Virus record (IMG/VR): IMGVR_UViG_3300027692_000003
DNA from: a virus
Taxonomy: Duplodnaviria > Heunggongvirae > Uroviricota > Caudoviricetes
Strand: one strand, 5' to 3'
DNA length: 64,000 nt
Shown: positions 2,961 to 34,190 of the stretch, piece by piece
How positions within the stretch are numbered: the stretch's first letter is position 1
Layout of the letters: every line of letters starts with the position of its first letter
The notes under the pieces: model-generated
Told to the model about the DNA's origin: nothing
What the model saw: the letters and a program-made list of their open reading frames with translations, nothing else
Database searches by the model: none
Program-made: the position numbers and the translations under genes

Positions 2961-3318
2961 CACGCCTCCTGACGGGTTCACGGGCGGCGCTCCAGGCAGT
3001 CCCGGCACCCGAACGCGGGTGAGCTGCACACCAGGGCGCCTAGCCGGCCGCAGCTCCCGCAACTGGACACCTCGCCCGCTGGGAGCGCCCAGAGCACGAG
3101 ATTGTCCGTCCTCCCGCAGGTACTACAGGAGGGCCTGCCGTCCGCAGCCTTGCAGTCGGGAGCAAGGAGCATCATGGTCAGGAGCCGCTCGGCCAGCATC
3201 TCGTCGATGACGGGCAGCGGCCCGCTGGCACTCACAGCACAGTCCCGTCTCCAGTTGGTAGCCGGCTGGTCACGATCCTGAGGATACGCCAGGGCCGGAT
3301 GTGACAGTATGCAGTCCC

Positions 3319-4829: not shown

Positions 4830-5032
4830 GATATCCGGAACGCGGGCAGGTCATGGGTCCAGCCGAGGAACACCTCCACCGTGTTCCGGGCCGCGCCCGG
4901 GAGGAGCTCAGGTCCGGGAGCGTCCTGCTCGTAGATGCCTCGCACGAAGATACCGCTGTACCGTTCGCCGTCCACGGTTTCCGGCACCACGTCCAGGACC
5001 ACTTTCACGACATCGCCCCTGTTAACGGCCAT
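4781..5032 (-). CDS. hypothetical protein
   Basis: ORF MAVNRGDVVKVVLDVVPETVDGERYSGIFVRGIYEQD... Confidence 0.4.
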   Translation of the reverse strand: MAVNRGDVVKVVLDVVPETVDGERYSGIFVRGIYEQDAPGPELLPGAARNTVEVFLGWTHDLPAFRISCGPEELWASDGGRAG

Positions 5033-5066
5033 CAGGCCCGTACCGTCCTCTCCGCTGCCGCCGCTG

Positions 5067-5360
5067 TCATTGCCGTGCCTCAGCTGGTCCGGGAAGGTTC
5101 TCAGCCCGTACCTGTTCTGCGGTCGCGAGGAACTCTTCCACGACCGTGGCGTCGCATGGCTCGCCCGGCCATTCCGTCCACGCGTACAGGAGCCGGGTCA
5201 GGCGCCGCCACCCTGTATCGGTCATGCCGGGCACGGATGTGCCGACCCGGATGTGCCGGGATACGGCCTGCTGGCCCAGGCCGGTGAGCGCGGCGATCAT
5301 CTCCTGTGCCGGGAGCCGGACCTGACCTCGCGGGATCCGGGAGTAGACCGTCAGGATCAC
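5067..5360 (-). CDS. hypothetical protein
   Basis: ORF MILTVYSRIPRGQVRLPAQEMIAALTGLGQQAVSRHIR... Confidence 0.35.
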   Translation of the reverse strand: MILTVYSRIPRGQVRLPAQEMIAALTGLGQQAVSRHIRVGTSVPGMTDTGWRRLTRLLYAWTEWPGEPCDATVVEEFLATAEQVRAENLPGPAEARQ

Positions 5361-5711
5361 CTGGGCTGCGTCACCGAGGTACCGCAGCTCGCCGATGACG
5401 GGGGGATCACCGTCCCGTCATCCGGGGTCCGGAGGATCGCCCACGCGCCATCAGCTCGCCCGTACAGGGCGTAGTGGTTGCCGGCCATGCCTTATCCTCG
5501 CCGTCCGGTCGGTGCGGCTGGTTTTCTGGGTTCCCATACCGCCCATAGTCCGCATCCGCGGCACTGCCGCTGGGTGCAGGTGGCTCGCATGCGGTCCGCC
5601 CACTCGGACCACTGCAGGTAGCCGGCGGGGCTATCGGTGTGCGGCTCGCATTCCTCCGGATACGCCGGCGTCGCCGTGCAGCCGGTCATCGTGATGCGCT
5701 GCGGTATCACG

Positions 5712-5951
5712 CTAGTCAACCGGACCCCGGACAGCGATCCGTACCCCGCGTGATTCCAGCTCACTGATGATGTCCTGCTCGGTGCGGCCGTAGTGGAGCA
5801 CGATCTCCATCGCGGGCAGCCCCATCTCGGCCATCACGGCCGCGGTGACCAGGATGGGTTCCCCGGCGGCCAGCCGGGTGACGTTCTCCCCGGCGAGGCC
5901 GAGGAACAGGACCGGCAGTCCCTGCTTGTTCCTCGCCGTCCACTTGATCAT
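5712..5951 (-). CDS. hypothetical protein (start at internal MIKWTARNKQ)
   Basis: The upstream part of the track ORF is Ala/Arg-rich artefact. Downstream 80 aa are protein-like. Confidence 0.35.
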   Translation of the reverse strand: MIKWTARNKQGLPVLFLGLAGENVTRLAAGEPILVTAAVMAEMGLPAMEIVLHYGRTEQDIISELESRGVRIAVRGPVD

Positions 5952-6138
5952 CGCAGCTTCCTTCTCATCCCCCGGTACTGGGCACTGTGGGGGCACCTGC
6001 AGGCCAGGGTGCCGTCGGACAGGGCGTGCCACAGCCAGACGGGCCACAGCGGCGACAGCCACCCGAGCCACCAGCCGGTGCCGTCGGGTCTGCGGTCCTC
6101 AGCTCCCACCGGGCACCCCTGCGGCGGGGAGGTGCTGA

Positions 6139-6603
6139 TCAGCCCGTGCCGCTGCCACCGGCGGTCTCCTCTTCCTGGCCCGTGTACAGGATCCCGGCCC
6201 GCAGCCGCCGCCACACCTCGACGGCTTCCTCCCGCACCGTCATGCCCGGTGTCCCGCCGGTGCCCCCGTGACAGCGGCACCGGCCCTCATGATGGGCGAG
6301 GCTCCCGGTGACGTTCGCGAACAGGCATTCCTTGTGGACGTGACGGATCTCAGGCGGCGCGTCTTTCCCGAGCAGCGGCATCGCCTGCCCCGAGTCACCC
6401 GCGGCCTCGTCGAAGACCTCTTCGCAGTACAGGCACGACTCACCTGCGGGGAATGCCTTGCGCATCTCCTCGATGAGCCGGCCGGCTTCGTCATAGCAGA
6501 CATACGACCACCACGGCGGCCCGAACCAGCCGTGGTTCTCCCGCCGCACCTCAGCCGGCAGCCCGTCATACCGGGTGCTGACCGTACCTGGCGTGTCGCT
6601 CAC
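6139..6603 (-). CDS. hypothetical Cys/His-containing protein
   Basis: ORF MSDTPGTVSTRYDGLPAEVRRENHGWFGPPWWSYVCYDEAGRLIEEMRKAF...CLYCEE...HKECLF. Confidence 0.45.
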   Translation of the reverse strand: MSDTPGTVSTRYDGLPAEVRRENHGWFGPPWWSYVCYDEAGRLIEEMRKAFPAGESCLYCEEVFDEAAGDSGQAMPLLGKDAPPEIRHVHKECLFANVTGSLAHHEGRCRCHGGTGGTPGMTVREEAVEVWRRLRAGILYTGQEEETAGGSGTG

Positions 6604-6642
6604 AGTCCACGAGACTACGCGGCAGCCCCCGGCGCCAAACCC

Positions 6643-6894
6643 TCAGGTCCAGGCCATGGCGAACAGTCTCCTCAGGCTCGACGCCACCGAATCCTTGCTC
6701 AGCCCCGCCAGCTCGCCGAGCTCGGCCAGCGACGCGTCCGGATGCTCGATCCGCAGCCTCGCGGCTGCCGCGAGCGGAGGCGGGCACCGGTCACCGAGGC
6801 TGTCCAGCGCAGCCTGAGCGCGGACGCTGGCCTCAGCGGCAGCGGCCCGCTGCCGTTCCCCGTTGCTCGCGGCGAGCCGGCTGGTCCCGGTCAT
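6643..6894 (-). CDS. small HTH DNA-binding protein (WhiA C-terminal-like / sigma region-4-like helix-turn-helix)
   Basis: LRIEHPDASLAELGELAGLSKDSVASSLRRLFAMA resembles the WhiA C-terminal HTH. Confidence 0.45.
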   Translation of the reverse strand: MTGTSRLAASNGERQRAAAAEASVRAQAALDSLGDRCPPPLAAAARLRIEHPDASLAELGELAGLSKDSVASSLRRLFAMAWT

Positions 6895-7208
6895 GACCGC
6901 GGATCCGTCCCGCCGGCACCGTCCGGGCCGGGGTCGCCGTCCAGGTCGTCATCGAGGACCGCCGCGGCGTCGGCACGCCGGAGTTCACCGGGCTGTCCGT
7001 CATCGCCGGGAGGGCGGGGCTGGGCGGTGTCCATCACGTACCTCGCTGAAAGTGGGGGGCGGCTGCTTCAGTCCTCAATCTAACCGGGGTCTGCCGGCCA
7101 CCGGCGCAGCCCCTAGTAATAAGGTCACGCGGCCGGGGGAGGGGGCGGTGCTCTCGCCACGAGCCCGGCTGCCGGGTACTGGCGCCGCCGGCCCGTAGCG
7201 TTGACATC

Positions 7209-7439
7209 GTGCGTAACACCGACATCGCCGCCATCGCCCGCCTCCGGGCTTCCTTCCGTAACGGGACCGCACGGCAGGCACGCCTCGCCGCCGGGATCAG
7301 CATGGCAGAGATCGCATCTGCCACCGGGGTATCCCGGCAGGCCATCGGAAGCTGGGAACGATGCCGGAGCATCCCGTCCGCCGGGCATGCCCTCGCCTAT
7401 GCGAAGGCACTCGCCGCGGCGACGGCAGCGTCAGCGTAA
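7209..7439 (+). CDS. XRE/Cro-C1-type HTH transcriptional regulator (GTG start)
   Basis: AGISMAEIASATGVSRQAIGSWE is a canonical HTH_XRE motif. Lies immediately upstream of the integrase. Confidence 0.6.
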   Translation: MRNTDIAAIARLRASFRNGTARQARLAAGISMAEIASATGVSRQAIGSWERCRSIPSAGHALAYAKALAAATAASA

Positions 7440-7589
7440 CGCGCAAGCAGGGCGCAAGCATCGCGGTAACCATCCGGAAAGCAGCGAGCCGCCATACAAA
7501 GATAATTACTGTTATATTGGAGTCGACCCTAGTCTAGTTCTGATGGCAGGAAAACCGGGCTGATAGCCGCCAGGCGGAGGTGGAACCGC
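7440..7589. promoter_or_regulatory. Locally AT-rich intergenic region upstream of int (promoter and possible attachment-site region)
   Basis: gataattactgttatattggagtcgaccctagtctagttctgatgg is strongly AT-rich against a ~70% GC background. A short direct repeat gcgcaagca x2 lies at 7441-7460. Confidence 0.3.
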
Positions 7590-8645
7590 GTGACCGGAAT
7601 CGAGATCTGCCGGCCCGTCCCGGGCGGAGACGACGCGCGGCCATCGGCCGAACGGCTCGTGCTCAGCTGGCTGGCCACCAAGAGATCCGCGAACACCCGG
7701 TTCGGCTACGGCGCCGATCTCGGCGTGCGGCTCCTGCGTCCCGGCGCGGCCACCATCGGCGAACCACGCCCCGCCCGCGCACCGGACTGGCTCAGCTACT
7801 GCCGGATGGCCGGCGTCGATCCGCTCGGCGCGGTACTCGAGGAGCATGCCGCGGTCTGGATCCGCGGCATGGAAGCGGCCGGGCTCTCCCCGGCCACCGT
7901 CGCACGCAAGCTGTCAGCAGTGTCGTCCTGGTATGCATGGCTGAAGAGAAAAGGCCACGTCGCTGCCAACCCAGCCGAGGACCTGCCCCGGCCCTACGTC
8001 AACCCGGACATCTCCACGACTCCCGGCCTGACAAGGGATCAGGCACTCGCGATGCTCGCGGCCGCCGATGATGCGCCCTGGCCGCAGTCCGCCCGCAACG
8101 CCGCGCTGACGGCGCTCCTCCTGTTCACGGGGGCGCGGGTCAGCGAGGCCTGCGGCGCCGCCCTGGCCGACCTCGGGATGGACCGCGGCCACCGGGTGCT
8201 GTGGGTCACCCGCAAGGGCACTGAAGGCAGGCAGGCACTCGGGCTCCCGGCACCGGCGACCATGCGGCTGGACGCCTACACTGCCGGACGCGCCGACCTC
8301 GAGCGGCTGCCCGCCATCGCCGGGACCCGGGGACGTGACCGGCCGCTGATCGCCACATCCACCGGGAAGCCGATGCGGCCGGCCGACGTGTGGGAACTCA
8401 TGCGGCGCCTGGGCCGCGCCGCGAAGCTGCCCCCGGAACTGGTCGCGAGGATGGGCTCCCACTCAATGCGGCACAGCTTCGCCACCCTCTACCTTGACGC
8501 CGGCGGGAACCTGCGGGACCTGCAGGACGCCATGGGCCACAAGGACCCGCGGACGACACGCCGGTACGACCGGTCGCGGGGCGCCCTTGACCGCTCGCCG
8601 GGCTACAGGCTCGCTGAGTACCTCTCGGACGGAGACCGGGCATGA
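7590..8645 (+). CDS. int: tyrosine site-specific recombinase / phage integrase (Xer-like)
   Basis: C-terminal catalytic motifs ...GARVSEA..., HSMRHSFATLYLDAGGNLRDLQDAMGHKDPRTTRRYDRS (R..H..R..Y). GTG start. Confidence 0.85.
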   Translation: MTGIEICRPVPGGDDARPSAERLVLSWLATKRSANTRFGYGADLGVRLLRPGAATIGEPRPARAPDWLSYCRMAGVDPLGAVLEEHAAVWIRGMEAAGLSPATVARKLSAVSSWYAWLKRKGHVAANPAEDLPRPYVNPDISTTPGLTRDQALAMLAAADDAPWPQSARNAALTALLLFTGARVSEACGAALADLGMDRGHRVLWVTRKGTEGRQALGLPAPATMRLDAYTAGRADLERLPAIAGTRGRDRPLIATSTGKPMRPADVWELMRRLGRAAKLPPELVARMGSHSMRHSFATLYLDAGGNLRDLQDAMGHKDPRTTRRYDRSRGALDRSPGYRLAEYLSDGDRA

Positions 8646-9979
8646 CAGCCACCCCTAAAGCGCTGACGGCGTGGACGGAGCTGAACGACCGGCAGCAGGG
8701 AACGCTGCGGGTCATCTACCAGATCGACCAGGCGAACGAGAAGTGGCGGCGGCAGCGCGGCACGAGCGGCAGCTACGACACGTCGCCCGCGTCGGAGTGG
8801 CGGCGCATCGACTTCGCGCACGACCCGTCCGGGCTGGCCACGACCGATATGCAGCTGCGCCTGGACACCGCGGGCTGGCATAACCAGGGGAACGGATCAA
8901 CGGTCGCCGCGCTCGCTGACCGTGGCATGCTCACCCGCGGGGAACGCGGCACGCTTCTCGGGGTGATGCTCACGGTCACGCTGACCCGCGAAGGACGCGC
9001 AGCCGCCCGCGCCGGGCTGTCCCTCCAGCCCGGCGGCGCCCCGAAAGCGGGGCTCCGCGAACGCGCGTGGGAAGTGCTCGCGCTGCTGTGGGCGGCCGGG
9101 CAGCGCGGCGAGACCCTGAAGTGGGGGTACTCGGCGACGATCGAGTTCGTGCTCATTGCCAAGCATGTGCCGGCGCTCGCCGAGCGGGTACCCGGCGGTT
9201 ACACGATCACCAGCCGCGGCCAGGACTTCTACCGGCAGCAGTACGCCGCGCACACCGCCGCGCACCCGGCCGTGCGCGCACCCCACCCCGACGGAGCAGC
9301 CGCCGAGCCGTGGCCCGCGGACGCCGGCCAGATCCTGGCCCGGCACCGCCGCCGCTACACGGAGCTGAGCATGGCATGGCAGGCCGAATGGGACGCGCAC
9401 AAGGACGCCGCAGCCGAAGCCAGCACTGCCGCACCGGACACGGGCGCTCTGCCCGTCGTCGTCGCCCAGATGGCCGCGGCCCGGCACCAGCTGTGGTGCG
9501 GCACCGCACAGCAGCGTGCGGCCCTGGCCGCCGCCCAGGCCGCCGAGCTGCACACCCTGGCCACCCGGGCGGCACGTACCTACGCTGTCGCGGCCCTGGC
9601 CGTATTCCGTGCCGCCGTCACCCGCACCGACCCGCTCGCCGGGCTCGGGGAACCACGCGACGACGACACGTGGGATGAGCCGCGCCTCGAGCCGCCGGCG
9701 GTAACCGGCATCCACGCCATCGATGAGCCCGCCCGGCGGCTGCACTCCGCTGCCGTCGGCGTGCCGGTGCCCCGGCGCGGCCCCGCCCCGAAACGGCGGC
9801 GCTCCAGCCGTCCCGTCACGGCACCGGAACGACCCGGCCAGCAGCTGGCACTCCTGGCCGGCTTCCTGAAAGAGCACACAGACGGGGGTGCTCTCCTGCG
9901 CCGACTCCACCCGGATTGCGGGGAGACGAAGGGCTGCCTAGAGCCAGCCGAAATGCTCAGCGGTATTACGCAGGACTGA
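8642..9979 (+). CDS. hypothetical 445-aa protein translationally coupled to int (ATGA overlap)
   Basis: The start ATG overlaps the int stop. Ala-rich, no recognisable domain. Confidence 0.6.
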   Translation: MTATPKALTAWTELNDRQQGTLRVIYQIDQANEKWRRQRGTSGSYDTSPASEWRRIDFAHDPSGLATTDMQLRLDTAGWHNQGNGSTVAALADRGMLTRGERGTLLGVMLTVTLTREGRAAARAGLSLQPGGAPKAGLRERAWEVLALLWAAGQRGETLKWGYSATIEFVLIAKHVPALAERVPGGYTITSRGQDFYRQQYAAHTAAHPAVRAPHPDGAAAEPWPADAGQILARHRRRYTELSMAWQAEWDAHKDAAAEASTAAPDTGALPVVVAQMAAARHQLWCGTAQQRAALAAAQAAELHTLATRAARTYAVAALAVFRAAVTRTDPLAGLGEPRDDDTWDEPRLEPPAVTGIHAIDEPARRLHSAAVGVPVPRRGPAPKRRRSSRPVTAPERPGQQLALLAGFLKEHTDGGALLRRLHPDCGETKGCLEPAEMLSGITQD

Positions 9980-12145: not shown

Positions 12146-12835
12146 TCACGTCACCGGGTGCATGCCGGGAGCGTTCCGCGTCATCACGAGCCGGTAGTTG
12201 TGCGCCTCTACCGCCTCGTTCACCAGGTCTGCCGTGTCGAGCGTCCCTATGAACACGTCCTCGTAGTGGTCTCCTGCAGGGGTCACGGCGTAGATGGTCC
12301 GGTCGTTGTGGGTGCCGGTACGCCAAGGCAGCGAGGAGAGGTCGGCGGGCTGCGCCGTGGCCTGCCGCTGCTCGGCGTAGCCTCGCAGCATCTCCAGCAC
12401 CTTCGCCCGCATGTCACCTAGCGTGGGGCCGCACTCCTCCAGAGCCCGGACCCCGATGCCGTCACCTTCGCGGAGCATCCCGAGCAGCAGGTGCTCTGTC
12501 CCGATGTAGTTGCAGCCGAGCGGGAGGGATTCCCGCAATGCCAGCTCGCAGGCTTTCTTGAGCCGGGGCGTGAACGGGATGTGGCCGCACGGCTTCTGCT
12601 GGCCGATGCCGATCCGCGCCACCACGGCCTCTCGCACCGCTGCCTCGGTGACCCCGAGGGCGATCAGCGCCTGCCCGGCGACGCCCTCACCCTCCCCGAT
12701 CAGCCCGATAGCGAGGTGCTCGGTGCCGATCCAGTTGTGGTTCAGGTCCCGCGCCGCCTGCTGCGCAAGCACGATGACCCGCCGTGCCCGGTCGGTGTAG
12801 CGCTCGAACATCAGGCTGTCCTCCATTCCGCTCAT
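12146..12835 (-). CDS. ClpC1 N-terminal-domain (double Clp_N repeat) homologue with ~85-aa C-terminal extension
   Basis: MFERYTDRARRVIVLAQQAARDLNHNWIGTEHLAIGLIGEGEGVAGQALIALG...IPFTPRLKK...CNYIGTEHLLLGMLREGDGIGVRALEECG is almost collinear with the ClpC/ClpC1 NTD (MFERFTDRARRVVVLAQEEAR...NYIGTEHILLGLIHEGEGVAA...). No AAA+ modules follow. Confidence 0.75.
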   Translation of the reverse strand: MSGMEDSLMFERYTDRARRVIVLAQQAARDLNHNWIGTEHLAIGLIGEGEGVAGQALIALGVTEAAVREAVVARIGIGQQKPCGHIPFTPRLKKACELALRESLPLGCNYIGTEHLLLGMLREGDGIGVRALEECGPTLGDMRAKVLEMLRGYAEQRQATAQPADLSSLPWRTGTHNDRTIYAVTPAGDHYEDVFIGTLDTADLVNEAVEAHNYRLVMTRNAPGMHPVT

Positions 12836-23278: not shown

Positions 23279-24913
23279 TCAGTCCTGGTCCTGGTCCTGC
23301 TCCGTACTGGCGGGGCCCGGTTTCCCGGTCCAGAGGATCTTCACGGAGTTCCTGACCGGGTTGTGCTTGGTATGTCCCGGGAAGAGCTCGATCTTCTGCG
23401 TGAGGATCCTGATGATGGCCCGCTTCTGGAGGACCGTCAGTGCATCCCACGCTGCCCGGACCCTGGGCTCGGGTCCGCCGAGCGGCATGTTCCGCAGGAC
23501 CGGGGAGATCGCGAGGCGGCGCCCCTTGCTGCGGAGCCGGCCGATGTCGGCCTCGAGGGTTTTCTCCAGCTGCGCGAGGACCCGCAGGCTCGGGGTGCCT
23601 GTCAGGGCATGGCTGTCGGTGGCTTCCCGCAGCCGCTGCTCTTTCTCCTCTGCCTCCGCGAAGTACTGCTCGGCATTGCGGCGCCGGTCCTGGCTGCTGG
23701 CGAGCGCCCGGAGGATGTCGGGGTTGGTGAGCCGGACGATGACTGACTCGGTGACGTACTCGTCAACCAGGGGCATGCGCCGGGCGGCGTGGCCCTTCGG
23801 GCAGTAGTAGTGGAAGAGCCCTGATCCCCTGGCCGTCTCGTTTCCCTGGACAGGCTTCGCGCAGATACCGCACTGGATGATGTAGGAGGCGAGGTAGCGG
23901 ACGTTCCCGTCGCGCCGCTTGCCCCTGGACCGTTCGGCGAGGACGCCGCGGGCCTGGGCTGCGAGGGCCTGGCTGAGGACCGGCGGCCAGATCGCCGTCG
24001 CGACGACCTGGCCGCGGTGCACCCGCTCCCCTGTGTAGGTGGGCCGCTTGATCATCAGGATCAGGGTCTGCCAACGCCAGTGCGTGCCCGCGACGATCTC
24101 CTCGAGCGCGGCTCTCTTCGCCGGGTCGGCCGTGGCGTTCAGCCGGCGCGCCGCCGCGGCTGCCCTGGGTGACAGGATCCCGCGGCGGTCGAGGTCGTCG
24201 CATATCTGCTGGAGCGGCTCGTGCAGGGAGACCCGCCGGGCTGCTTCCCGGATTACCTGGGCTTCTTCCTCGATGATGCGGACCTCGAGGAGTTCTCGGT
24301 CCGGGCCGTACACCCTCTCGTAGGCGTACACGCCGGGGCCGTGGGGACGGCCGGACTGCGCGTTGGCGCGCATGTCCCGCCGGACACGCTTGCTGGTCTC
24401 GTCGGAGGATTTCTCGTTGTGCATGCCTTCCATGAGGAGGGCCTGCCGGTCGGCGATGTTGTCCGGGTCATACAGGCGCTCGGCGCCGCTGTCGTAGAGG
24501 AGTGTTCCCGTGTCGCGGCACAGGTCCAGGAAGTGCGTCCAGGAGGCCATGGTCCGGTCACCGCGGGAGGTCTCGTGCATGACGAGGACCCGGGCGGGCC
24601 GCTGCGGGGAGTCCTCCCTGAGGACGGGGGTGCCTTCGAGTACCTCGATGAGCTCGTCCCAGTCGGGGCGGCGCCGGGTCGCGAAGCGGGACGCCGAGAT
24701 GTCGTCGTCGCTCCATTTCCGCTCGACCGGCCAGCCGTGGTCGGTGCAGGCCCGTACGTTGGCCCGGTCCTGCTGGACGATCGACCCGACTTTGTCCTTG
24801 CCGCGTTTCCTGCTCCTGCTGGCATCGCTGAGGCGGGTGTAGAGCCACGCGGGCAGGGGCCCGCGATCTGGAGGGAGAAGTGCCAGCGCGGGCAGCATGG
24901 TGCTATGGTACAT
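23279..24913 (-). CDS. large serine recombinase (serine integrase)
   Basis: N-terminal resolvase domain (YTRLSDASRSRKRG...SIVQQDRANVRACTDHGW), recombinase domain, and zinc-ribbon Cys cluster (CGICAKP...YYCPKGH). 544 aa. Confidence 0.85.
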   Translation of the reverse strand: MYHSTMLPALALLPPDRGPLPAWLYTRLSDASRSRKRGKDKVGSIVQQDRANVRACTDHGWPVERKWSDDDISASRFATRRRPDWDELIEVLEGTPVLREDSPQRPARVLVMHETSRGDRTMASWTHFLDLCRDTGTLLYDSGAERLYDPDNIADRQALLMEGMHNEKSSDETSKRVRRDMRANAQSGRPHGPGVYAYERVYGPDRELLEVRIIEEEAQVIREAARRVSLHEPLQQICDDLDRRGILSPRAAAAARRLNATADPAKRAALEEIVAGTHWRWQTLILMIKRPTYTGERVHRGQVVATAIWPPVLSQALAAQARGVLAERSRGKRRDGNVRYLASYIIQCGICAKPVQGNETARGSGLFHYYCPKGHAARRMPLVDEYVTESVIVRLTNPDILRALASSQDRRRNAEQYFAEAEEKEQRLREATDSHALTGTPSLRVLAQLEKTLEADIGRLRSKGRRLAISPVLRNMPLGGPEPRVRAAWDALTVLQKRAIIRILTQKIELFPGHTKHNPVRNSVKILWTGKPGPASTEQDQDQD

Positions 24914-25943: not shown

Positions 25944-26552
25944 CACCTGGCTGTTACAGCAGGGCAGGAACCGGCCCAGGAACCTGGCCGGCGGTCATCC
26001 CGTGAGCGTGAGGGGCACGGATGACCGCCGGCCAGCCCGTTTCCCCAGGACATTCACGGAAGGCAAGGACAGGCAGTTGGCTGCTACCGCACTCGAGAGG
26101 CGCCCGGCGGCGGGCGGATGGCGGCAGGCGCGGGCTGGACTGCGCGGCCGTCACGCCGCCGCCCTCCCCGTTCCCCGCGTCGCCGCGGTGACCGGCCGCC
26201 GGTCCGGGCCGCAGGTCAGCGAAGCCTACGCGTCCGCTGCCCTCCTCGCCGCCCTCCGCGGACGCCGGCACCTCGCCGCCGCATCCGTGCAGTGCATGAC
26301 ACCCGAAGACATCGCCGCGTTCCGGACGGCCGCCCGGTACCTCGTCGAGCTGGGCGCCGCCCGGCTCCGGGACCTCGACCCGGCTGCTGTCCCCCCAGGG
26401 TTCACGGCCTGCTGGACCTGCCTCACCACCCCGGCCGGAACCGCGTGCACCAGCCCGTCCTGCCGCGAGGGCGCGTAGCGGATGCGGCCGGACCGGCCCC
26501 TGTCACCGGAGCCCCCCCCCGCTGCCTCCTCGGTAATGAGGAAGGGACCGCT

Positions 26553-27353
26553 GTGGGCAGGGCCATGATCGGCACGATCAGGACCGGTGCACGAAAGTCC
26601 CGGACCCTGGGGGATATCGCGGGCCTCGCCGGCTCCATCGCGGTGGACGGGCAGCGGCACCCGGTCACGGTCAGCCCGGCGGGCCAGCTCATCACCGGTG
26701 CCCGGCGCCTGGCCGCCCGCGAGCACCTCGGCTGGGTCACGGTCCCGGCCCGGGTGATCACGACCTTCCAGGAAGCTGTCGACGCACTGAACGCCGAGCG
26801 TGCCGACGGCCGGCACGCGAAGCCGATGACCGTCGCTGAGATCATCGACCTGGAATCGGTGATGGCCGCGGAACTGGAATGGTGGCCCAGGCAGCAGCCA
26901 GGGAACGGTGACCGGATCCGCGGGAACGAGCGCCGTGCGGCGGTGGCGGCCGCGCTCGGGGTCAGCACCACGGTGTACCGGGACGGGAAGAGGATCGCCG
27001 CTGCTGCCCGCGGCGAGGCGTACGGCAGGACACCGGAACTGGTCACCCCCCGGGCCCGGCAGGCAGCAGCGGACGCGATGGCCGCGATCCGGGCCGGGAT
27101 ACCGGTCCCGGAGGCATACCGGCAGTTCACTGCGGCAGCATGGCCGGCGGCGGCGCCCCGGCCGAACCCGAGGCAGCGGCAGGCCGTCGCATCCGCTGTC
27201 GGCGCCCTCGCCGGGATCGCCGGCGCCCTGGCCAGTACCGGGCCGCTCGACCCGTCGATCAGCCCTGACGTCATCGCCGGCTGGGACACGTCCCTGACTG
27301 AGGCGATGGGACAGCTCCGGACGTTCCGGACGACACTGAGGAAGGCACCCTGA
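26553..27353 (+). CDS. ParB-like N-terminal (ParB/Srx) domain protein (GTG start, GAGGAAGGG RBS)
   Basis: TLGDIAGLAGSIAVDGQRHPVTVSPAGQLITGARRLAAREHLGWVTVPARVI (GxxRxxA motif). The 145-codon upstream extension of the track ORF is Arg/Pro-rich artefact. Confidence 0.6.
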   Translation: MGRAMIGTIRTGARKSRTLGDIAGLAGSIAVDGQRHPVTVSPAGQLITGARRLAAREHLGWVTVPARVITTFQEAVDALNAERADGRHAKPMTVAEIIDLESVMAAELEWWPRQQPGNGDRIRGNERRAAVAAALGVSTTVYRDGKRIAAAARGEAYGRTPELVTPRARQAAADAMAAIRAGIPVPEAYRQFTAAAWPAAAPRPNPRQRQAVASAVGALAGIAGALASTGPLDPSISPDVIAGWDTSLTEAMGQLRTFRTTLRKAP

Positions 27354-28557: not shown

Positions 28558-28687
28558 CCCGGACTCGCGACGCCACGCCGGGATCGGTGCTATGCGTGCA
28601 GGCCGGTTGCCGGTAGCGGCGCCCGGGTTACGCTGTGCGGCATGCTGCTGGTGAGGGACCTGCGTACTGGCGCGGCACCATAGGAAA

Positions 28688-28828
28688 CAGTGCCGTGTCC
28701 GCGGTGCCGGCATGGTCCGGGCACAGCCGCCCCCCCTTTTTCCCTGCGCGAGCCCCGCAGGACGCAGGGGGCAGCGGCACCCCCGTCCCCGTCGTACCGT
28801 GCCGGCACCGGGGACACGGCACATCCCG
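28688..28828 (+). ncRNA. structured RNA candidate: 23-bp near-perfect long-range inverted repeat enclosing ~90 nt with an internal C7T5 tract and a CCCTGCG/CGCAGGG hairpin (Y RNA-like Ro-binding stem candidate)
   Basis: GTGCCGTGTCCGCGGTGCCGGCA (~28691) pairs with TGCCGGCACCGGGGACACGGCAC (~28803). No ORF with coding character. Lies upstream of rsr. Confidence 0.35.
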
Positions 28829-28984
28829 GGCGGGGTCGAAGGCGACTGCTTACCTGCTGGAACCGGGAAGCCTGGGGTGCTGGGCCCGTCCCGGGGGAGC
28901 GCGATCCCCCGGGACGCTCAGCCTCGCAGGGCACCGGTTAGATACCGCAGCCGCCGGCACTGCTTATCCGCCCGGACCCAGGCG

Positions 28985-29115
28985 GCATGACCCTGGCGGG
29001 TCGAAGATGTCCGGTTACCACTGTTAATGGAGAGGTCGCAGGTTCGAGACCTGCCGGCCGGGGCAACCCGGCCGTAGCTCAGCTGGCAGAGCACTTAAAC
29101 CCCGGACGTCACACC
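28985..29115 (+). ncRNA. tRNA-like structured RNA module 1 (YrlA-type Y RNA candidate) with permuted order T-arm / closed acceptor-like hairpin / D-arm
   Basis: CCACTGTTAATGG is an anticodon-arm-like hairpin. GCAGGTTCGAGACCTGC is a T-arm-like hairpin with a TTCGAGA loop. CGGCCGGG-GCAA-CCCGGCCG is an 8-bp stem with a GNRA tetraloop. TAGCTCAGCTGGCAGAGCA is a D-arm. A flanking CCGGTTA/TTAAACCCCGG stem is possible. Confidence 0.4.
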
Positions 29116-29169
29116 CTTTATCCGCCGGGGCCTCGCCGGCCCCGTATTCCCGTCCCGACCTTTGTGTGC

Positions 29170-29280
29170 GGCCCCTGGCGGGTCGAACGAGTCCCGGTTA
29201 TCACAAGTTCGATTCTTGTAGGCCCCACCCCTTTGCGGGGCCTTCGCTCAGTGGCAGAGCATCCGGTCCTCACCTCACTC
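29170..29280 (+). ncRNA. tRNA-like structured RNA module 2 (tandem paralogue of module 1)
   Basis: Shares CCCTGGCGGGTCGAA-N4-TCCCGGTTA with module 1. ACAAGTTCGATTCTTGT is a T-arm. GGCCCC...GGGGCC is a hairpin. TTCGCTCAGTGGCAGAGCA is a D-arm. The TTATCCGCC(N)GG(R)CC motif recurs at ~28964, ~29118 and ~29279. Confidence 0.4.
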
Positions 29281-29347
29281 ATCCGCCAGGACCCCCGTCA
29301 CCGCCCCGTGTCCAGTTCAGGTCGCCCGTACCCCGGAAGGCGCAGCC

Positions 29348-31033
29348 ATGCCCCGTGATCCCCTGGCCTCCGTCACCACCCTCGCCACCCCGCAGAACCA
29401 GCCCGTCCCCGGCCGTGCTGACCAGGTACGGGATAACGCCGGCGGGTACGTGTTCGCGAAAGACCTGTGGACCAGGCTCGAGGATTTCCTGATCCTCGGC
29501 ACGGCCGGCGGGACGCATTATCTCGGTGAGGACAAGCTGACTGCTGACAACGCCGACGTGGTGTTCGAGGCGATCCGGGAGGACGGGCCGCGTGCCGTCA
29601 CCCTCCTCACGGACATCTCAGCATCGAGACCGCCCAGGGCACCGAAGAACCGGGGGTGCCTGTTCACGCTCGCCGCCGCGTCCGCGTCCGGCAACCCCGC
29701 TACGGTGCAGGCCGTCAAGGCGGCGGTACCCCTGGTCGCCCGGACCACCGGTCATCTCGCTGCCCTGTACGGGTACCGGAAGCAGTTCAAGGCGGCGGCG
29801 ACCCCCCGCGGGTACTCGTCGGTGGAGGGGCGGGCGTGGCGGTCCGCGCTTGCCGGCTGGTTCCTGACCGGGGACCCGGACTCGGTGGCGTGGCGGGCAT
29901 GCAAGGCGAAGTCGCGGAAGACTCCCGCCGGGGAGGACATGGCGCTGCGGGACATCATCCGCCTCGCCCACCCCAGGCCGGCCACTGCGGAGCAGGCGGC
30001 GCTGCTGGGGTGGCTGACCGGGAAGACCAGCGACGAGCAGGCCGCCGCGCTGCTGCCCGCCGTCGACGCGTACCTGACCGCCCGCGCCGTCACCACCGAG
30101 ACTGAGGCGGTCCGGGTGGTGACGGACCGGCGGGTCCCGTGGGAGTACCTGCCGTCGAAGTTCCAGGGATCGGCGGCAGTGTGGGAAGCACTCGCACCGG
30201 TCGCGGGGGTAACGGCGCTGCTGCGGAACCTGGCCCGCATGACCAGGATCGGCACCATCGCCCCGTTCGCCGCCGCCAATGTGGAGGTGGCACGGCGGCT
30301 CACCGACCCGCAGGTGCTGAGGCAGGGCCGGATACACCCGATGGACGTGTTCCTCGCCCTGCGGGTCTACCAGTCGGGCCGGTCCCAGCCGAACCCTGAC
30401 GAGCCGCCCAGCACGTGGCAGCCCGTCGCGGACATCTCCGACGCACTGGAGGAGGCGTACAGCCTGTCGTTCGGGCATACCGAGCCATCCGGGCGGCGGC
30501 TCCTGGTCGCCGTGGACTCGTCCGGGTCCATGACCGGGAAGGTGTACCGGAACGGCCCGGTAGTGCACCCGGTCACGTTCGGCGGATCGCCGATCGGCAC
30601 CCCGTATGAGGTGGCGTGCGCGGTCGCAGTCCAGATGAAGCGGATCGAGGGCGGCAACGTCCATGTCATCGACGTCGACGGCGCCGCGCACCCGTCGAAG
30701 GTGACCGCCCGGACGACCCTGCGGGAAATCAGCTCGTGGAAACCCAGCGGGGACCGCACGGACCTGTCCCTCCCGTTCATGTACGCGGCCCAGTATGACC
30801 TGAGGGTCGACGGGTTCCTGATCCTGTCCGACATGGAGACCTGGGCCGGGGGGCAGCACCCTTTCCAGGCCCTGTCCGCTTACCGGGCCCGGTACAACCC
30901 GCACGCGAGGGTGGTCGCCGCGGCGATCACTCCGGCGGGTCACGCCATCGGCGAGCCCGGCGACACGGGTGTGCTGAACATTGCCGGGATGGACTCCTCG
31001 CTGCCGCAGGTCATCGCCGGGTTCCTCCGGTGA
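29348..31033 (+). CDS. rsr: Ro60 orthologue (TROVE domain + C-terminal vWA with MIDAS)
   Basis: GGYVFAKDLWTRLEDFLILGTAGGTHYLGEDKLTADNADVVFEAIREDGPRAVTLL aligns with human Ro60 [52 protein letters not shown]. C-terminal LLVAVDSSGSMTG is a MIDAS DxSxS motif. GGAAGG RBS. Confidence 0.85.
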   Translation: MPRDPLASVTTLATPQNQPVPGRADQVRDNAGGYVFAKDLWTRLEDFLILGTAGGTHYLGEDKLTADNADVVFEAIREDGPRAVTLLTDISASRPPRAPKNRGCLFTLAAASASGNPATVQAVKAAVPLVARTTGHLAALYGYRKQFKAAATPRGYSSVEGRAWRSALAGWFLTGDPDSVAWRACKAKSRKTPAGEDMALRDIIRLAHPRPATAEQAALLGWLTGKTSDEQAAALLPAVDAYLTARAVTTETEAVRVVTDRRVPWEYLPSKFQGSAAVWEALAPVAGVTALLRNLARMTRIGTIAPFAAANVEVARRLTDPQVLRQGRIHPMDVFLALRVYQSGRSQPNPDEPPSTWQPVADISDALEEAYSLSFGHTEPSGRRLLVAVDSSGSMTGKVYRNGPVVHPVTFGGSPIGTPYEVACAVAVQMKRIEGGNVHVIDVDGAAHPSKVTARTTLREISSWKPSGDRTDLSLPFMYAAQYDLRVDGFLILSDMETWAGGQHPFQALSAYRARYNPHARVVAAAITPAGHAIGEPGDTGVLNIAGMDSSLPQVIAGFLR

Positions 31034-31058
31034 GGACCCCGCCCGGGGCCGGGGGTGC

Positions 31059-31478
31059 GTGGTGGCCCTGACGGACTGCCCGTACTGCGAGGAACGCCAC
31101 GGTGACCTGCTCCTGTGCCCTCCCGCGAAACGGTATCTCGACGCGGTTGCCGCACGCGGGCACCGGTTCGACCTCCCCGAGATCGAGTTCAGTGAACCGG
31201 TGGCCGGCGCCGGCATGTTCGGCGAGGACACGGTCCTGATGGCCCAGTTCCTGGCCAAGGCGGCGGTCGTCCAGGTCGCCGGGACCCACAAGCCGGTCCT
31301 CATCCTCACCGGTGTCTCCATCGACGGGACCCCGCTGCCGAACTGGCTGTACGCGGGGAACGCGGCCCAGATCCGCCGGGCCGTGAAGATCACCGCCGGG
31401 ATGGGCGAGATGGCGATCCGGCGGGCCCGCGACCTCAACCAGGCGCAGCCGCCCGGTCCCTTACCCCGTTTCCCGTGA
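31059..31478 (+). CDS. hypothetical protein downstream of rsr (start uncertain)
   Basis: ORF ...VVALTDCPYCEERHGDLLLCPPAKRYLDAVAARGHRFDLPEIEFSEPVAGAGMFGEDTVLMAQFLAKAAVVQVAGTHKPVLILTGVSIDGTPLPNW... Confidence 0.4.
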   Translation: MVALTDCPYCEERHGDLLLCPPAKRYLDAVAARGHRFDLPEIEFSEPVAGAGMFGEDTVLMAQFLAKAAVVQVAGTHKPVLILTGVSIDGTPLPNWLYAGNAAQIRRAVKITAGMGEMAIRRARDLNQAQPPGPLPRFP

Positions 31479-31559
31479 CCCGGGACACACCAGGGCACAG
31501 CCGCCGGCCCGGCTGCCGTGCCAGTCACGCCCACCCGGAAAAGGGGAAGAGGGAACTCG

Positions 31560-32525
31560 ATGGGATGGTTTATCTTCGCGGTCCTGCTCGCCATCATCGG
31601 CGCGCTCGCGCTGGCTGGCGGCGGCCTGGCGAAAGGCGAGTATAAGCGCGCCTACGGCGGGAAGCCGGAGCCGTGGGACTGGTCACTGCCAGTCCGGGCC
31701 GCCGGCGGCTTCGTGCTTCTGCTCTCGTTCGGCCTGTTCGCGGTGTCGGGCCTGAAGTCGGTCCCGGTGAAGAACATCGGCGTCCCGCAGGTATTCGGTG
31801 CGGTGACCGGCACCGTGCAGGGGCCCGGGATCCACGAGACGTGGACGCCGTGGCTGCACCTGACCGACGTGGACGAGACCGTCCAGACCACGACGTTCGA
31901 GGACTCCGGTAACGACACCGGGTCATCATGCAACGGCGGCCTCGCAGTCCGGATCGGCGGCCAGCAGACCGCGTGTGCCGACGTGACGATCCAGTGGCAG
32001 ATCCTGCCGGCAGCCGCGGACTCCCTGTTCAGCGACTACGCCAACCAGGGCAACCTGATGACCGAGATCACCAATGCCGTGGTGCTGCGCGAGTTCAAGA
32101 CCGTCGTCAACCAGGTCGTGGGTGACTACAACCCGATCACCGACGTGGAGTCCGTCGCGAATACGAACTCGGCGACCAGCGTGTTCTCCACGTTCGCGCC
32201 GACAATCCAGGCGGACATGACCCGTGACATCGGGTCCCGGATCAGGATCATCAGTGTTCAGCTGCCGCTGATGCATTACGACGCCACGGTGGAAGCCGCA
32301 CTGCAGTCGATCGCGAAGGAGAACGCGAGCTACGCCGTCGCTGTCGAGGAAGTGAAAGTCGACCAGGAGCAGGCCCTGGCCTACCGGCAGCTCGGCACAC
32401 CGTCCGAGAGCGCCCTGATCAGCGAGTGCCTCTCCGACGTGAAAGCAGCAGGCAGCAGCTGGCCGGTCAACGTCCAGTGCTTCCCGGGTGCCAGCTCAGG
32501 TGTGGCACTCTCCCAGGGAGGGTGA
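31560..32525 (+). CDS. membrane-anchored SPFH/band-7-like protein
   Basis: N-terminal TM MGWFIFAVLLAIIGALALAGGG, then a prohibitin/stomatin-like region (IQWQILPAAADSLFSDYANQGNLMTEITNAVVLREFKTVV...AALQSIAKENASYAVAVEEVKVDQEQALAYRQLG). Confidence 0.5.
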   Translation: MGWFIFAVLLAIIGALALAGGGLAKGEYKRAYGGKPEPWDWSLPVRAAGGFVLLLSFGLFAVSGLKSVPVKNIGVPQVFGAVTGTVQGPGIHETWTPWLHLTDVDETVQTTTFEDSGNDTGSSCNGGLAVRIGGQQTACADVTIQWQILPAAADSLFSDYANQGNLMTEITNAVVLREFKTVVNQVVGDYNPITDVESVANTNSATSVFSTFAPTIQADMTRDIGSRIRIISVQLPLMHYDATVEAALQSIAKENASYAVAVEEVKVDQEQALAYRQLGTPSESALISECLSDVKAAGSSWPVNVQCFPGASSGVALSQGG

Positions 32526-32587
32526 CGCCGGCGCCCGGAACAGGGCAGCTCCTCGCGCGGGGCCGCCGTCATCCGGGCATGACGAAA

Positions 32588-32635
32588 CCGCCCGCCTGCC
32601 TCCCCCGGTCAACGGGGAAGGCAGGCGGGCGGCTG
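32588..32635. terminator. Perfect 21-bp stem hairpin between convergent genes (bidirectional terminator candidate)
   Basis: CCGCCCGCCTGCCTTCCCCG-gtcaa-CGGGGAAGGCAGGCGGGCGG. Confidence 0.45.
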
Positions 32636-32655
32636 GGATGCGGCCTGGCGCGGGT

Positions 32656-32889
32656 TTAGGAGCCCGTCGACGGTGCCGGGGTGGCGGGGACCAGGGCGGT
32701 CACCGACGTGACCGTGGTGCCCAGCGACGCCACGGCGGCGTCGAGGCCGGACAGGTCCAGGGCAGGATTCGCTGCCTGGAGGGTGGTGATTTCCGCCTGG
32801 ATGGCGGTGACGTCCGCTGCCAGGGTCGTGACTGCCGTCTCGATGCCGGCGACGTCGGTGGCCAGGTCGGCTGCCTGCTCGCTCATGCT
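32656..32889 (-). CDS. small coiled-coil protein (start MSEQAADLATDVAG)
   Basis: Heptad-like repeats (...IETAVTTLAADVTAIQAEITTLQAANPALDLSGLDAAVASLGTTVTSV...) running Thr/Ala-rich (...ALVPATPAPSTGS). The upstream part of the track ORF is artefact. Confidence 0.4.
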   Translation of the reverse strand, partial: SMSEQAADLATDVAGIETAVTTLAADVTAIQAEITTLQAANPALDLSGLDAAVASLGTTVTSVTALVPATPAPSTGS

Positions 32890-32990
32890 GTGCCTGCTTT
32901 CTGCGGGAAATGAGGAGAGCACCCGGCGGGCTGCCGGGTGCTCAGGGGGTAAGAAGGTGCGCCTGCCACCCGGCCAGGGCCGGGCGGGGG

Positions 32991-33320
32991 CTAGAGGAAG
33001 GGGACGTCGACGATGAACGCGTTCACGGCGCAGGCCTGCACCGTGCCGGTCCCGGCCCACTCATACGTCCAGGTCGCGGAGTCCACCGCATCCGTGGTGT
33101 CCAGGTCGGCGTGGTACAGGCCGGCGGCGTCCCTGACGACGGGCGACGCCGGGTAGGTGACGGTGACGACGGCCTGCCCGGTACCGGGCCGGTACAGCAG
33201 GGTGACCACCGTCGGGTCGGCGAGGTCCCCGTCCTCGTTGACGAACCCGCCCGAAGGCGCCGAGACGCTGCCGGCATAGGTCGCTACCCGGATCAGGTTC
33301 CCCGCGGTATAGGTGTTCAC
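32991..33320 (-). CDS. phage structural protein (hypothetical)
   Basis: ORF MNTYTAGNLIRVATYAGSVSAPSGGFVNEDGDLADPTVVTLLYRPGTGQAVVTVTYPASPVVRDAAGLYHADLD... Confidence 0.45.
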   Translation of the reverse strand: MNTYTAGNLIRVATYAGSVSAPSGGFVNEDGDLADPTVVTLLYRPGTGQAVVTVTYPASPVVRDAAGLYHADLDTTDAVDSATWTYEWAGTGTVQACAVNAFIVDVPFL

Positions 33321-33329
33321 GAGGCCTCC

Positions 33330-34190
33330 CTAGGGCTGCCAGTCAGCTGCGAGGACGGAGGCGGGCTGCCAGTCGGCGGCGGTGACGGTGCCGGGGCCGA
33401 CCGGCGGGACGAGCTCACCTGTCCCGCCCGGGAGCGCCGTGGCGGTGAGTGCTGCCGCACCCTCACGGCGGGAGGTGCCTGCCGCGGACTGTGCTGCCGC
33501 GGTCCGCAGCGACGAAGGGCCGGCGGCGGTCTTGGCGGCGGCGGGCTGAGCCGTCCCGGTGCTGGTGATGGCGGAATACCCGGACACGGCCCGGGTACCG
33601 GACGTCCGCATGATCCCGGAAGAGAGGGCCTGTGACGTGCCGGGGGCGTGCCTGGCACCTGCGGCGGACAGGAAGCCCGTCTCGGTGATCGCGGATATTC
33701 CGGGCGGCTGTCCTGTCTCTGCGCCGAGGATGCCGCCTGCGGTGAGTGCCGCCTGCCCGGAAGCGGCCCGGATGCCGGCCGGTGACGTGCGCGCAGTCGC
33801 CGGCAGCCTGCCGGTGCCCGGTGCGGACTTCTGCCCGGCAGCTCCGGTGAGGGCGGCAGTAGTGGCCTGGGCGGTGCCGGCGCAGGCCTTGGCGCCTCGC
33901 GGTGCGGAGGCCGCGGCCCCGCTGAGAGCCCCTGTGCCCGGGGTTCTCCTGCTGCCCGCAGGGGCGTGCGTGCCGGCAGCGGTGAGCTCCGCGGTGCCGG
34001 CTGCCGCCCTGGTGCCCGCCGGGGTGCTGGTCCCGGTGCCGCAGATCCGGGAGGATCCCGACGCGGTCTTGACGCCGGCGGGGGCCGTCGTCCCGGCTGC
34101 GGTGACCGCGGACGTCCCGGTGTATGCGGGGACTGCCGTCAGCGGGGTGACCTTCGGCCGGAAGGGGAACGCTCGGCCTAGACGCGCCAT
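33330..34190 (-). CDS. repetitive Ala/Thr/Gly-rich fibre-like protein ending in tandem ADWQP motifs
   Basis: Short repeats of the A-G-T-x-A-P-A-G type throughout. C-terminus TAADWQPASVLAADWQP. Confidence 0.45.
   Translation of the reverse strand: MARLGRAFPFRPKVTPLTAVPAYTGTSAVTAAGTTAPAGVKTASGSSRICGTGTSTPAGTRAAAGTAELTAAGTHAPAGSRRTPGTGALSGAAASAPRGAKACAGTAQATTAALTGAAGQKSAPGTGRLPATARTSPAGIRAASGQAALTAGGILGAETGQPPGISAITETGFLSAAGARHAPGTSQALSSGIMRTSGTRAVSGYSAITSTGTAQPAAAKTAAGPSSLRTAAAQSAAGTSRREGAAALTATALPGGTGELVPPVGPGTVTAADWQPASVLAADWQP

Follow-up and report, generated by a model that had tools for sequence, protein, structure and literature searches.

A putative Ro60-Y RNA module with exchangeable downstream genes in a temperate phage

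Introduction

In 254 bacteria and 22 phages, Streptosporangium roseum and mycobacteriophage ET08 among them, Ro60 has YrlA-like RNAs encoded beside it (Chen et al., 2014, PMC4201824). In the RYPER complex of Deinococcus and Salmonella, the tRNA-like module of the Y RNA tethers polynucleotide phosphorylase (PNPase) (PMC4201824, PMC12135203). In Thermus phage phiLo, two Yrls that carry a CGAA motif lie upstream of Ro60, and the complex binds the PNPase of the host and lowers its activity (PMC12135203). Here we analyse a Ro60 (Rsr) gene, rsr, and its neighbours in 64,000 nucleotides of DNA from a virus of the Caudoviricetes (IMG/VR record IMGVR_UViG_3300027692_000003). We refer to this whole stretch, with a G+C content of about 70%, as the window.

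That phages carry Ro60 with adjacent Y RNAs is already established, by the 22 phages reported in 2014, by SEA-PHAGES annotation, by PHROG 850 and by the phiLo structure of 2025. What is specific here is a host-type module in a temperate phage, with three tandem RNAs of which one is degenerate, and with a cargo slot into and out of which an SPFH gene is swapped. A preliminary description of the locus had placed rsr at the head of an operon with a small open reading frame (ORF) and a gene for an SPFH/Band_7 membrane protein, and had taken these two genes for partners of Ro60, with a membrane-linked function suggested. Our analysis corrects this reading, in that the RNA genes upstream of rsr appear to be the partners and the SPFH gene appears to be cargo.

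Y RNA-like genes upstream of rsr

We find that the defining partners of Ro60 at this locus are, as judged from sequence and predicted structure, three upstream Y RNA genes (Ya, Yb and Yc, Table 1), which had been overlooked in the preliminary description. All three are on the strand of rsr and precede it by 56-522 nt, inside the 4 kb around a Ro60 ortholog in which YrlA RNAs are encoded. In all three the ends of the RNA pair as GGCGGGU/AUCCGCC, followed by a bulged C and GAA, and we identify this helix with the 'CGAA motif' helix of Ro60 binding (PMC12135203). The 64 kb contain three copies of its 5' motif, GGCGGG(G)TCGAA (28829, 28995 and 29177), and three of its 3' motif, YWYATCCGCC (28963, 29117 and 29278); the two alternate on the + strand, and neither is found elsewhere.

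The terminal helix of Yb is formed by pairing of 28992-29001 with 29120-29129, with the bulged C and with CGAA at 29002-05. Together with a second stem, it surrounds the T-arm GCAGGUUCGAGACCUGC, an acceptor-like hairpin and the D-arm UAGCUCAGCUGGCAGAGCA. Yc has the same Ro-binding helix as Yb, and here too this helix and a second stem surround a T-arm, ACAAGUUCGAUUCUUGU, then an acceptor-like hairpin and a D-arm. Both RNAs thus hold a permuted tRNA-like domain, in which a T-arm with a GGUUCGA loop is followed by a closed acceptor-like hairpin and then by the D-arm (AGCUCAG..GGCAGAGC), and this permuted arm order is that of the tRNA-like domain of YrlA RNAs (PMC4201824). The YrlA architecture, a terminal helix with bulge and CGAA that encloses T-arm, acceptor-like stem and D-arm, is complete in Yb and Yc, and Ya shares the terminal helix only. 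When all Rfam families were scanned against 5 kb at an E-value threshold, YrlA (RF02553) matched at 29008-29111 and 29175-29292.

For comparison, relatives of the window Ro60 were collected from metagenomes, IMG/VR and genomes. A scan of IMG/VR with the single Ro60 protein returned nothing, and an alignment query was required to find relatives there. From 20 loci we aligned 25 Yb-type sequences (alignment A2) and built from them a covariance model (CM), R1. RNAalifold predicts 28 pairs for A2, and compensatory changes are seen in 15 of them, with the covariation located in the outer four pairs, the second stem and the T and D arms. On this structure 94.1% of cells are paired; shifting the partners by 1-3 columns lowers the share to 33-46%, and none of 500 shuffles reached any of the observed measures. 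Searched against the whole window, R1 finds exactly three sites, namely Ya, Yb and Yc. We looked for a fourth RNA upstream of Ya, where 28575-28865 folds with z about 0 and gives no CM match.

The same arrangement recurs beside other Ro60 genes. In dozens of loci the 5' and 3' motifs occur as a pair on the Ro60 strand, at most about 500 nt ahead of the gene, and 80 genome loci, dominated by Streptosporangiales, contain 189 R1 matches, typically as 2-4 tandem copies no more than 650 nt upstream of rsr. Among the relatives discussed below, R1 finds three copies in L008, four in L001, five in L094 and six in L004, and in L007 Yc is kept at 208-323. In phage contigs, R1 thereby detects as many as six Y RNAs in one array. 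In a search of GenBank phages at the DNA level, the window was matched only at the Yb region, in two Mycobacterium abscessus prophages (including the prophiGD43A-5 region).

As an observation in its own right, the array of L004 (IMGVR_UViG_3300037258_000549) is unusually long: its six tandem Y RNA-like genes (6019-6904; R1 scores of 33-103 bits) are flanked by a Band_7 gene (5028-5945) and the Ro60 gene (7214-8953).

Table 1. Features of the rsr locus in window coordinates. The three Y RNA-like genes stand in tandem upstream of rsr. R1, covariance model built in this work; z, folding z score.
Feature	Coordinates	Strand	Description and support
Ya, Y RNA-like	28826-28977	+	Ro-binding helix 5' GGCGGGGUCGAA, 3' UUAUCCGCC; R1 46 bits, E 3e-9; fold z = -3.6
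Yb, Y RNA-like (YrlA type)	28992-29131	+	R1 123 bits; RF02553 40.4 bits, E 1.4e-6; fold z = -4.3
Yc, Y RNA-like (YrlA type, shorter)	29174-29292	+	R1 61.5 bits, E 5e-13; YrlA 28 bits, E 0.0057; z = -2.7
rsr (Ro60/Rsr)	29348-31033	+	561 aa; TROVE HEAT-repeat ring and vWA domain with MIDAS; Pfam, PDB, PHROG 850
Small conserved ORF	31062-31478	+	138 aa; N-terminal CxxC-x3-H-x5-C; five-member family
SPFH/Band_7 membrane protein	31560-32525 (alternative GTG start 31518)	+	321 aa; Pfam, PHROG 200, fold match
Probable bidirectional terminator hairpin	32589-32633		perfect, long, GC-rich; z = -5.4

The Ro60 protein and the proposed module

The identification of Ro60 in the preliminary description holds. 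The protein passes both Pfam gathering scores (vWA_Ro60, 107.3 bits with a cut-off of 27.7; TROVE, 65.2 bits with a cut-off of 23) and matches PHROG 850. Its residues 13-561 align collinearly to residues 11-531 of Deinococcus radiodurans Rsr (2NVO; E 8e-66), and Xenopus and human Ro60 (1YVP, 9NEN) align to it over their full length with E about 1e-60. The metal ion-dependent adhesion site (MIDAS) claimed earlier is also present, as DSSGS at residues 390-394 in the vWA domain; D390, S392 and S394 are invariant in an alignment of 38 relatives (A1).

Taken together, we consider it probable that the window carries a self-contained ribonucleoprotein (RNP) module of Ro60/Rsr and Y RNAs in a temperate phage, with the downstream genes as cargo. 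The three Y RNA genes and rsr run in the same direction, and the Y RNAs would probably be processed from a common transcript. By homology, each Y RNA would be bound by the Ro60 ring through its conserved terminal helix, with the paired ends, the bulged C and GAA. The tRNA-like domain of Yb and Yc would then recruit a host factor, with PNPase or else another enzyme that handles tRNA or RNA as the likeliest candidate; the effector is assumed to come from the host because no PNPase is encoded in the phage region examined. In this way, host RNA decay and quality control could be redirected or dampened by the phage in infection or lysogeny. The SPFH protein would most likely form a separate membrane cage or scaffold, like HflK/C or stomatin, and may modulate a membrane protease or the envelope.

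Exchangeable genes downstream of rsr

The small ORF most likely starts at a GTG with an RBS-like (ribosome-binding site) GGGGG upstream. Its family comprises only five proteins among 5.8 billion searched, 51-83% identical to the window member, and in their alignment C6, C9, H13 and C19 (a C2HC pattern) are invariant; it may be a small zinc-binding protein. Searches of phage proteins, Pfam, PHROG, PADLOC, NCBIfam and PDB gave no match to it, and its AlphaFold model has a pLDDT (predicted local distance difference test score) of 59.8, too poor for a fold search. Two of the five family members, in L126 and L127, do not adjoin Ro60.

That the third gene encodes an SPFH protein, as first described, is borne out by Pfam Band_7 on the ORF 31518-32525 (43.9 bits with a cut-off of 23.6) and by concordant matches to PHROG 200 (7.7e-23) and to known folds. 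Of the two candidate starts, the ATG chosen by the gene caller has a good RBS and is likelier than the GTG. The AlphaFold model (AF2), with a pLDDT of only 68.5, begins with two hydrophobic helices (2-32 and 42-63); these precede the SPFH domain and an extended coiled-coil helix at 242-278. Foldseek matched it to erlin, stomatin, prohibitin and HflK/C (E 1e-9, probability 1.0), and also to flotillin and QmcA. A sequence search against PDB found no match, and the fold search alone succeeded. PADLOC gave a weak, partial match to one model (E 4e-4). Identity to the band-7 proteins of GenBank phages is no more than 22-32%, and as to a pairing of the HflK/C type, the neighbourhood holds a single Band_7 gene, with a second SPFH or NfeD absent from its Pfam list. 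In the literature on phage band-7 function, or on a link between Ro and band-7, we found only a mild toxicity of LeBron gp49 on overexpression.

If Ro60, the small ORF and SPFH formed one system, an SPFH scaffold would bring the Ro60 RNP to the membrane, where it would serve RNA quality control, defence or anti-defence. The layout would suit such a system. The three genes are on the + strand with short spacers, 28 nt between rsr and the small ORF and 81 nt between the small ORF and the SPFH ATG, and these spacers fold unremarkably (z between 0 and 1). In this layout the sole statistically unusual hairpin is the terminator-like one 3' of SPFH, which separates the + strand cluster from convergent - strand late genes and is kept in the relative L007 at about 3060-3101. 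The arrangement is consistent with a single transcript and one shared terminator. The operon first described thus agrees with the sequence in its layout, but its start at 29348 omits the three Y RNA genes at 28826-29292.

The relatives argue against a single system. L007, whose Ro60 is 83% identical to that of the window, aligns to the window at 83% over 28988-31451 and at 84% over 32566-33389, and exactly the 1114-nt SPFH segment between them (31452-32565) is replaced by 556 unrelated nt, a clean cassette swap. The Y RNAs and Ro60 are still present in L007, as is the small ORF, at 83% identity. In L008 (Ro60 71% identical), three Y RNAs and Ro60 are followed by convergent lysis genes, without the small ORF and without SPFH. 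By tblastn, an SPFH homolog was near Ro60 in none of 80 metagenomic loci (of which 47 extend 1.5 kb or more past the gene on its downstream side), none of 25 IMG/VR loci (10-kb flanks) and none of 80 genome loci (8-kb flanks). Over all other Ro60 loci the count is 0 of 187. Among about 75 cellular rsr loci we found no conserved protein neighbour, as no family is common to more than six of them. In addition, PADLOC defence models match neither Ro60 nor the small ORF. Because of the swap in L007, the absence from L008, the empty searches of all three collections and the lack of a conserved cellular neighbour, we regard SPFH as cargo, and by the same comparative reading the small ORF and SPFH appear to be exchangeable cargo in a variable slot, and not components of a Ro60 machine.

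The converse search gave a similar picture. The closest SPFH homolog (74% identical, on 17 contigs) and those next in rank on long contigs (P0127, P0129, P0132 and P0133) are surrounded by small early-region ORFs, and no Ro60 of any type was found within up to 10 kb of them; the IMG/VR loci L120, L121, L123 and L125 gave the same result. One pairing, of SPFH P0131 with Ro60 P0010 on a 2640-bp contig, was rejected since the two do not share it. When SPFH-clade contigs were sampled irrespective of Ro60, about 1 in 10 carried Ro60 (L004 only), a rate not clearly above that expected from a shared accessory region near the integrase.

Points against a self-contained module

Several observations weigh against the module as we propose it, and some of these concern its RNAs and its protein. 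In Ya the T and D arms are reduced to a degenerate vestige, and a long GC-rich hairpin takes the place of the tRNA-like domain; from its sequence, Ya would be a diverged paralog with a role comparable to that of the shorter YrlB-type RNAs. An Rfam scan of the window at the gathering threshold gave no match, with YrlA at 40.4 and 28 bits vs a gathering score of 69. The NCBIfam Rsr model NF041674 aligns over its full length, with 289.9 bits, under its equivalog cut-off of 900. Both the Ro60 protein and the Y RNAs thus appear to be divergent members of their families, under the strict cut-offs. The sequences of A2 were chosen by a regular expression on the terminal-helix core, and its six invariant core pairs carry no weight. 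PNPase as the host effector is assumed by analogy with the described complexes.

The remaining points are recurrences of SPFH near Ro60. In L004, an IMG/VR contig of 90.8 kb, an SPFH gene (53-60% identical to that of the window) is followed by six Y RNAs and then by a Ro60 of a different clade, which shares only 34% identity with the window Ro60 and 56% with the type found in M. abscessus prophages. In L094, five Y RNAs accompany a Ro60 that is 60% identical, and an SPFH gene of the same clade as that of the window stands 4 kb downstream of it in the same orientation; this locus was picked because it was present in both the Ro60 and the SPFH match lists, and it is not an unbiased sample. Across L004 and L094, the identity of same-clade SPFH is 53-62%, and in both it is no more than 5 kb from Ro60. 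In cluster L mycobacteriophages (LeBron, Faith1, CELFI, Krypton555 and Clautastrophe), a Band_7 gene lies 0.9-1.6 kb upstream of a 'Ro-like' DUF2828/DUF7788-vWA gene, and this proximity holds across 54-67% protein identity. Many large actinophages carry both families; in these GenBank phages the two genes are 8-120 kb apart, which speaks against one system.

Some details of these phages deserve mention on their own. In LeBron (HM152763, 36926-40377; 2927-6378 of our locus L208), the Band_7 gene, gp49, is 0.9 kb upstream of the DUF2828/DUF7788-vWA gene, gp53, and a tRNA-like CM match (31 bits) falls in the unannotated gap just downstream of gp53. LeBron gp50 (138 aa) was considered as a homolog of the small ORF and rejected, as it shows no similarity. 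In the Streptomyces BE phages Sham and Moab (loci L005 and L006), a band-7-like gene is within a region of tRNA, transfer-messenger RNA (tmRNA) and RNA-ligase genes, about 10 kb from the Ro-like gene.

We treat the recurrences as a weak lead and as incidental. Weighing the swap, the empty loci and the sampled SPFH clade against the layout and the recurrences, we find it unlikely that Ro60, the small ORF and SPFH are one system, and a functional link of any kind between Ro60 and SPFH is improbable to the same degree. It is slightly more doubtful still that an SPFH scaffold and a Ro60-Y RNA particle serve in one pathway, for instance in a membrane-organised RNA surveillance or exclusion expressed from the prophage. 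The cases that would belong to such a pathway are the window, L094, L004 and cluster L, together with co-occurrence at the genome level in cluster C, Streptomyces BE and Gordonia Forza-type phages. The membrane-linked partnership proposed in the preliminary description is thus not supported.

Phage setting and origin of the module

On one side of the Y RNA-rsr cluster are a serine recombinase gene (23279-24913, - strand) and ParB_N and DUF6551 genes. On the other side, in convergent orientation on the - strand, are Gp80-like and other tail genes, a GH25 lysin, a tape-measure-sized ORF of 1607 aa and a tail tube gene. Because of these flanking recombinase, ParB, tail and lysis genes we place the Y RNA-rsr module inside a temperate phage or prophage, in agreement with the phage-borne setting assumed earlier, and the placement of the cluster among phage genes is common to L007 and L008. 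The element is siphophage-like, and its host most likely belongs to the Streptosporangiales. We further note that the 64 kb encode two site-specific recombinases, a tyrosine integrase and the large serine recombinase, with a Clp_N-domain protein between them (7590-8645, + strand; 12146-12835, - strand; 23279-24913, - strand).

A 270-nt non-coding gap (28558-28825) separates an upstream 109-aa ORF from Ya; it has no CM match and folds in an ordinary way. This gap presumably holds the promoter of the Y RNA-rsr unit; a consensus promoter scan was negative there, and in this DNA of 70% GC such scans for promoters and terminators gave nothing useful.

With respect to origin, none of the 359 GenBank phage records that have a Ro homolog exceeds 37% identity to the window Ro60. 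In a set of 185,579 species genomes, the best matches reach 58-62% identity, and all are from Streptosporangiales (Streptosporangium, Sphaerisporangium, Nonomuraea, Microtetraspora, Actinomadura and Herbidospora). The phage would thus carry a host-type, Streptosporangiales-like copy of the Y RNA-rsr module, and among phage Ro proteins the window Ro60 looks like an independent lineage of host type. Some Streptosporangiales rsr copies are on plasmids or present in several copies, with three loci in Spongiactinospora sp. TRM90649 (within the set L128-L198). Nearly all genomes of this set have 2-4 tandem Y RNAs ahead of rsr. The conserved and evidently mobile unit would be the Y RNA array plus rsr, since the arrays recur while protein neighbours do not, and this suggests that RNA genes plus rsr form a mobile cassette in Streptosporangiales. 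The module thus seems to move as RNA genes with rsr, without protein partners.

Two points would speak for the rsr locus being host chromosome that abuts a prophage, namely these same identities, about 60% to cellular Streptosporangiales Rsr vs at most 37% to GenBank phage Ro, and the length of the source scaffold, as the identical Ro60 protein is found on an ENA metagenome scaffold of 165 kb. We consider this very unlikely, given the phage genes on both sides of the cluster and its identical placement in L007 and L008.

Resemblance to tRNA genes

Lastly, it is scarcely credible that the upstream elements are ordinary phage tRNA genes or pseudogenes and no partners of Ro60, as they do contain T-arm and D-arm consensus sequences, a weak Rfam tRNA match (28992-29062; 18.3 bits, E 4.1) and a homolog annotated as tRNA-Thr in prophiGD43A-5, but ARAGORN finds zero tRNAs in the window, the order of T-arm, closed acceptor-like hairpin and D-arm is permuted with no anticodon arm in the tRNA register, the domain is enclosed by a long covarying terminal helix with CGAA, and well over 100 loci carry such elements at this specific place, upstream of rsr.

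The prophage just named offers a separate observation. In prophiGD43A-5 (MW584167; locus L001, 4980-5597, corresponding to about 26006-26623 of the record), four Y RNA-like copies are upstream of gene 52, annotated as 'Ro-like RNA binding protein'. The first copy overlaps the annotated tRNA-Thr(tgt), which, judging by this match, is probably a mis-annotated Y RNA; we flag it in this published M. abscessus prophage.

Comparison with known systems

Among the systems to which the locus can be compared, the SPFH cage formers (HflK/C, stomatin, prohibitin, erlin and QmcA) and the actinophage band-7 proteins (PHROG 200) share with the downstream membrane protein the N-terminal membrane helices, the SPFH domain and the coiled coil. 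Unlike in the cage formers, the window gene is single, with no HflK/HflC pair and no NfeD seen in the Pfam list of the neighbourhood. The enterobacterial rsr-yrlBA-rtcBA operon, under RtcR, resembles the window in that Rsr and Y RNAs are encoded together. It differs in that the window has no RtcB, RtcA or RtcR gene within 10 kb of rsr, as the preliminary description had noted for RtcB and RtcR, and in that the Y RNAs of the window are upstream of rsr.

Closer to our locus are the Ro60-Yrl1/Yrl2 of phiLo and the actinophage Ro-like proteins (PHROG 850; cluster C mycobacteriophages and Streptomyces BE phages), with which it has in common a phage Ro60, upstream CGAA Y RNAs and, by analogy, a presumed action via a host effector such as PNPase. 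In contrast to these, the window has three Y RNAs and not two, at most 37% identity in Ro60 and a location in the accessory slot of a temperate phage. The bacterial Rsr-YrlA/YrlB loci, including those of S. roseum and Mycobacterium smegmatis, differ from the window in that its module is in a phage or prophage, Ya is without a recognisable tRNA-like domain and the YrlA gathering score is missed. What the window shares with them is the presence of several Y RNAs per locus, directly upstream of rsr and on the same strand, with a terminal Ro-binding helix around a permuted tRNA-like domain.

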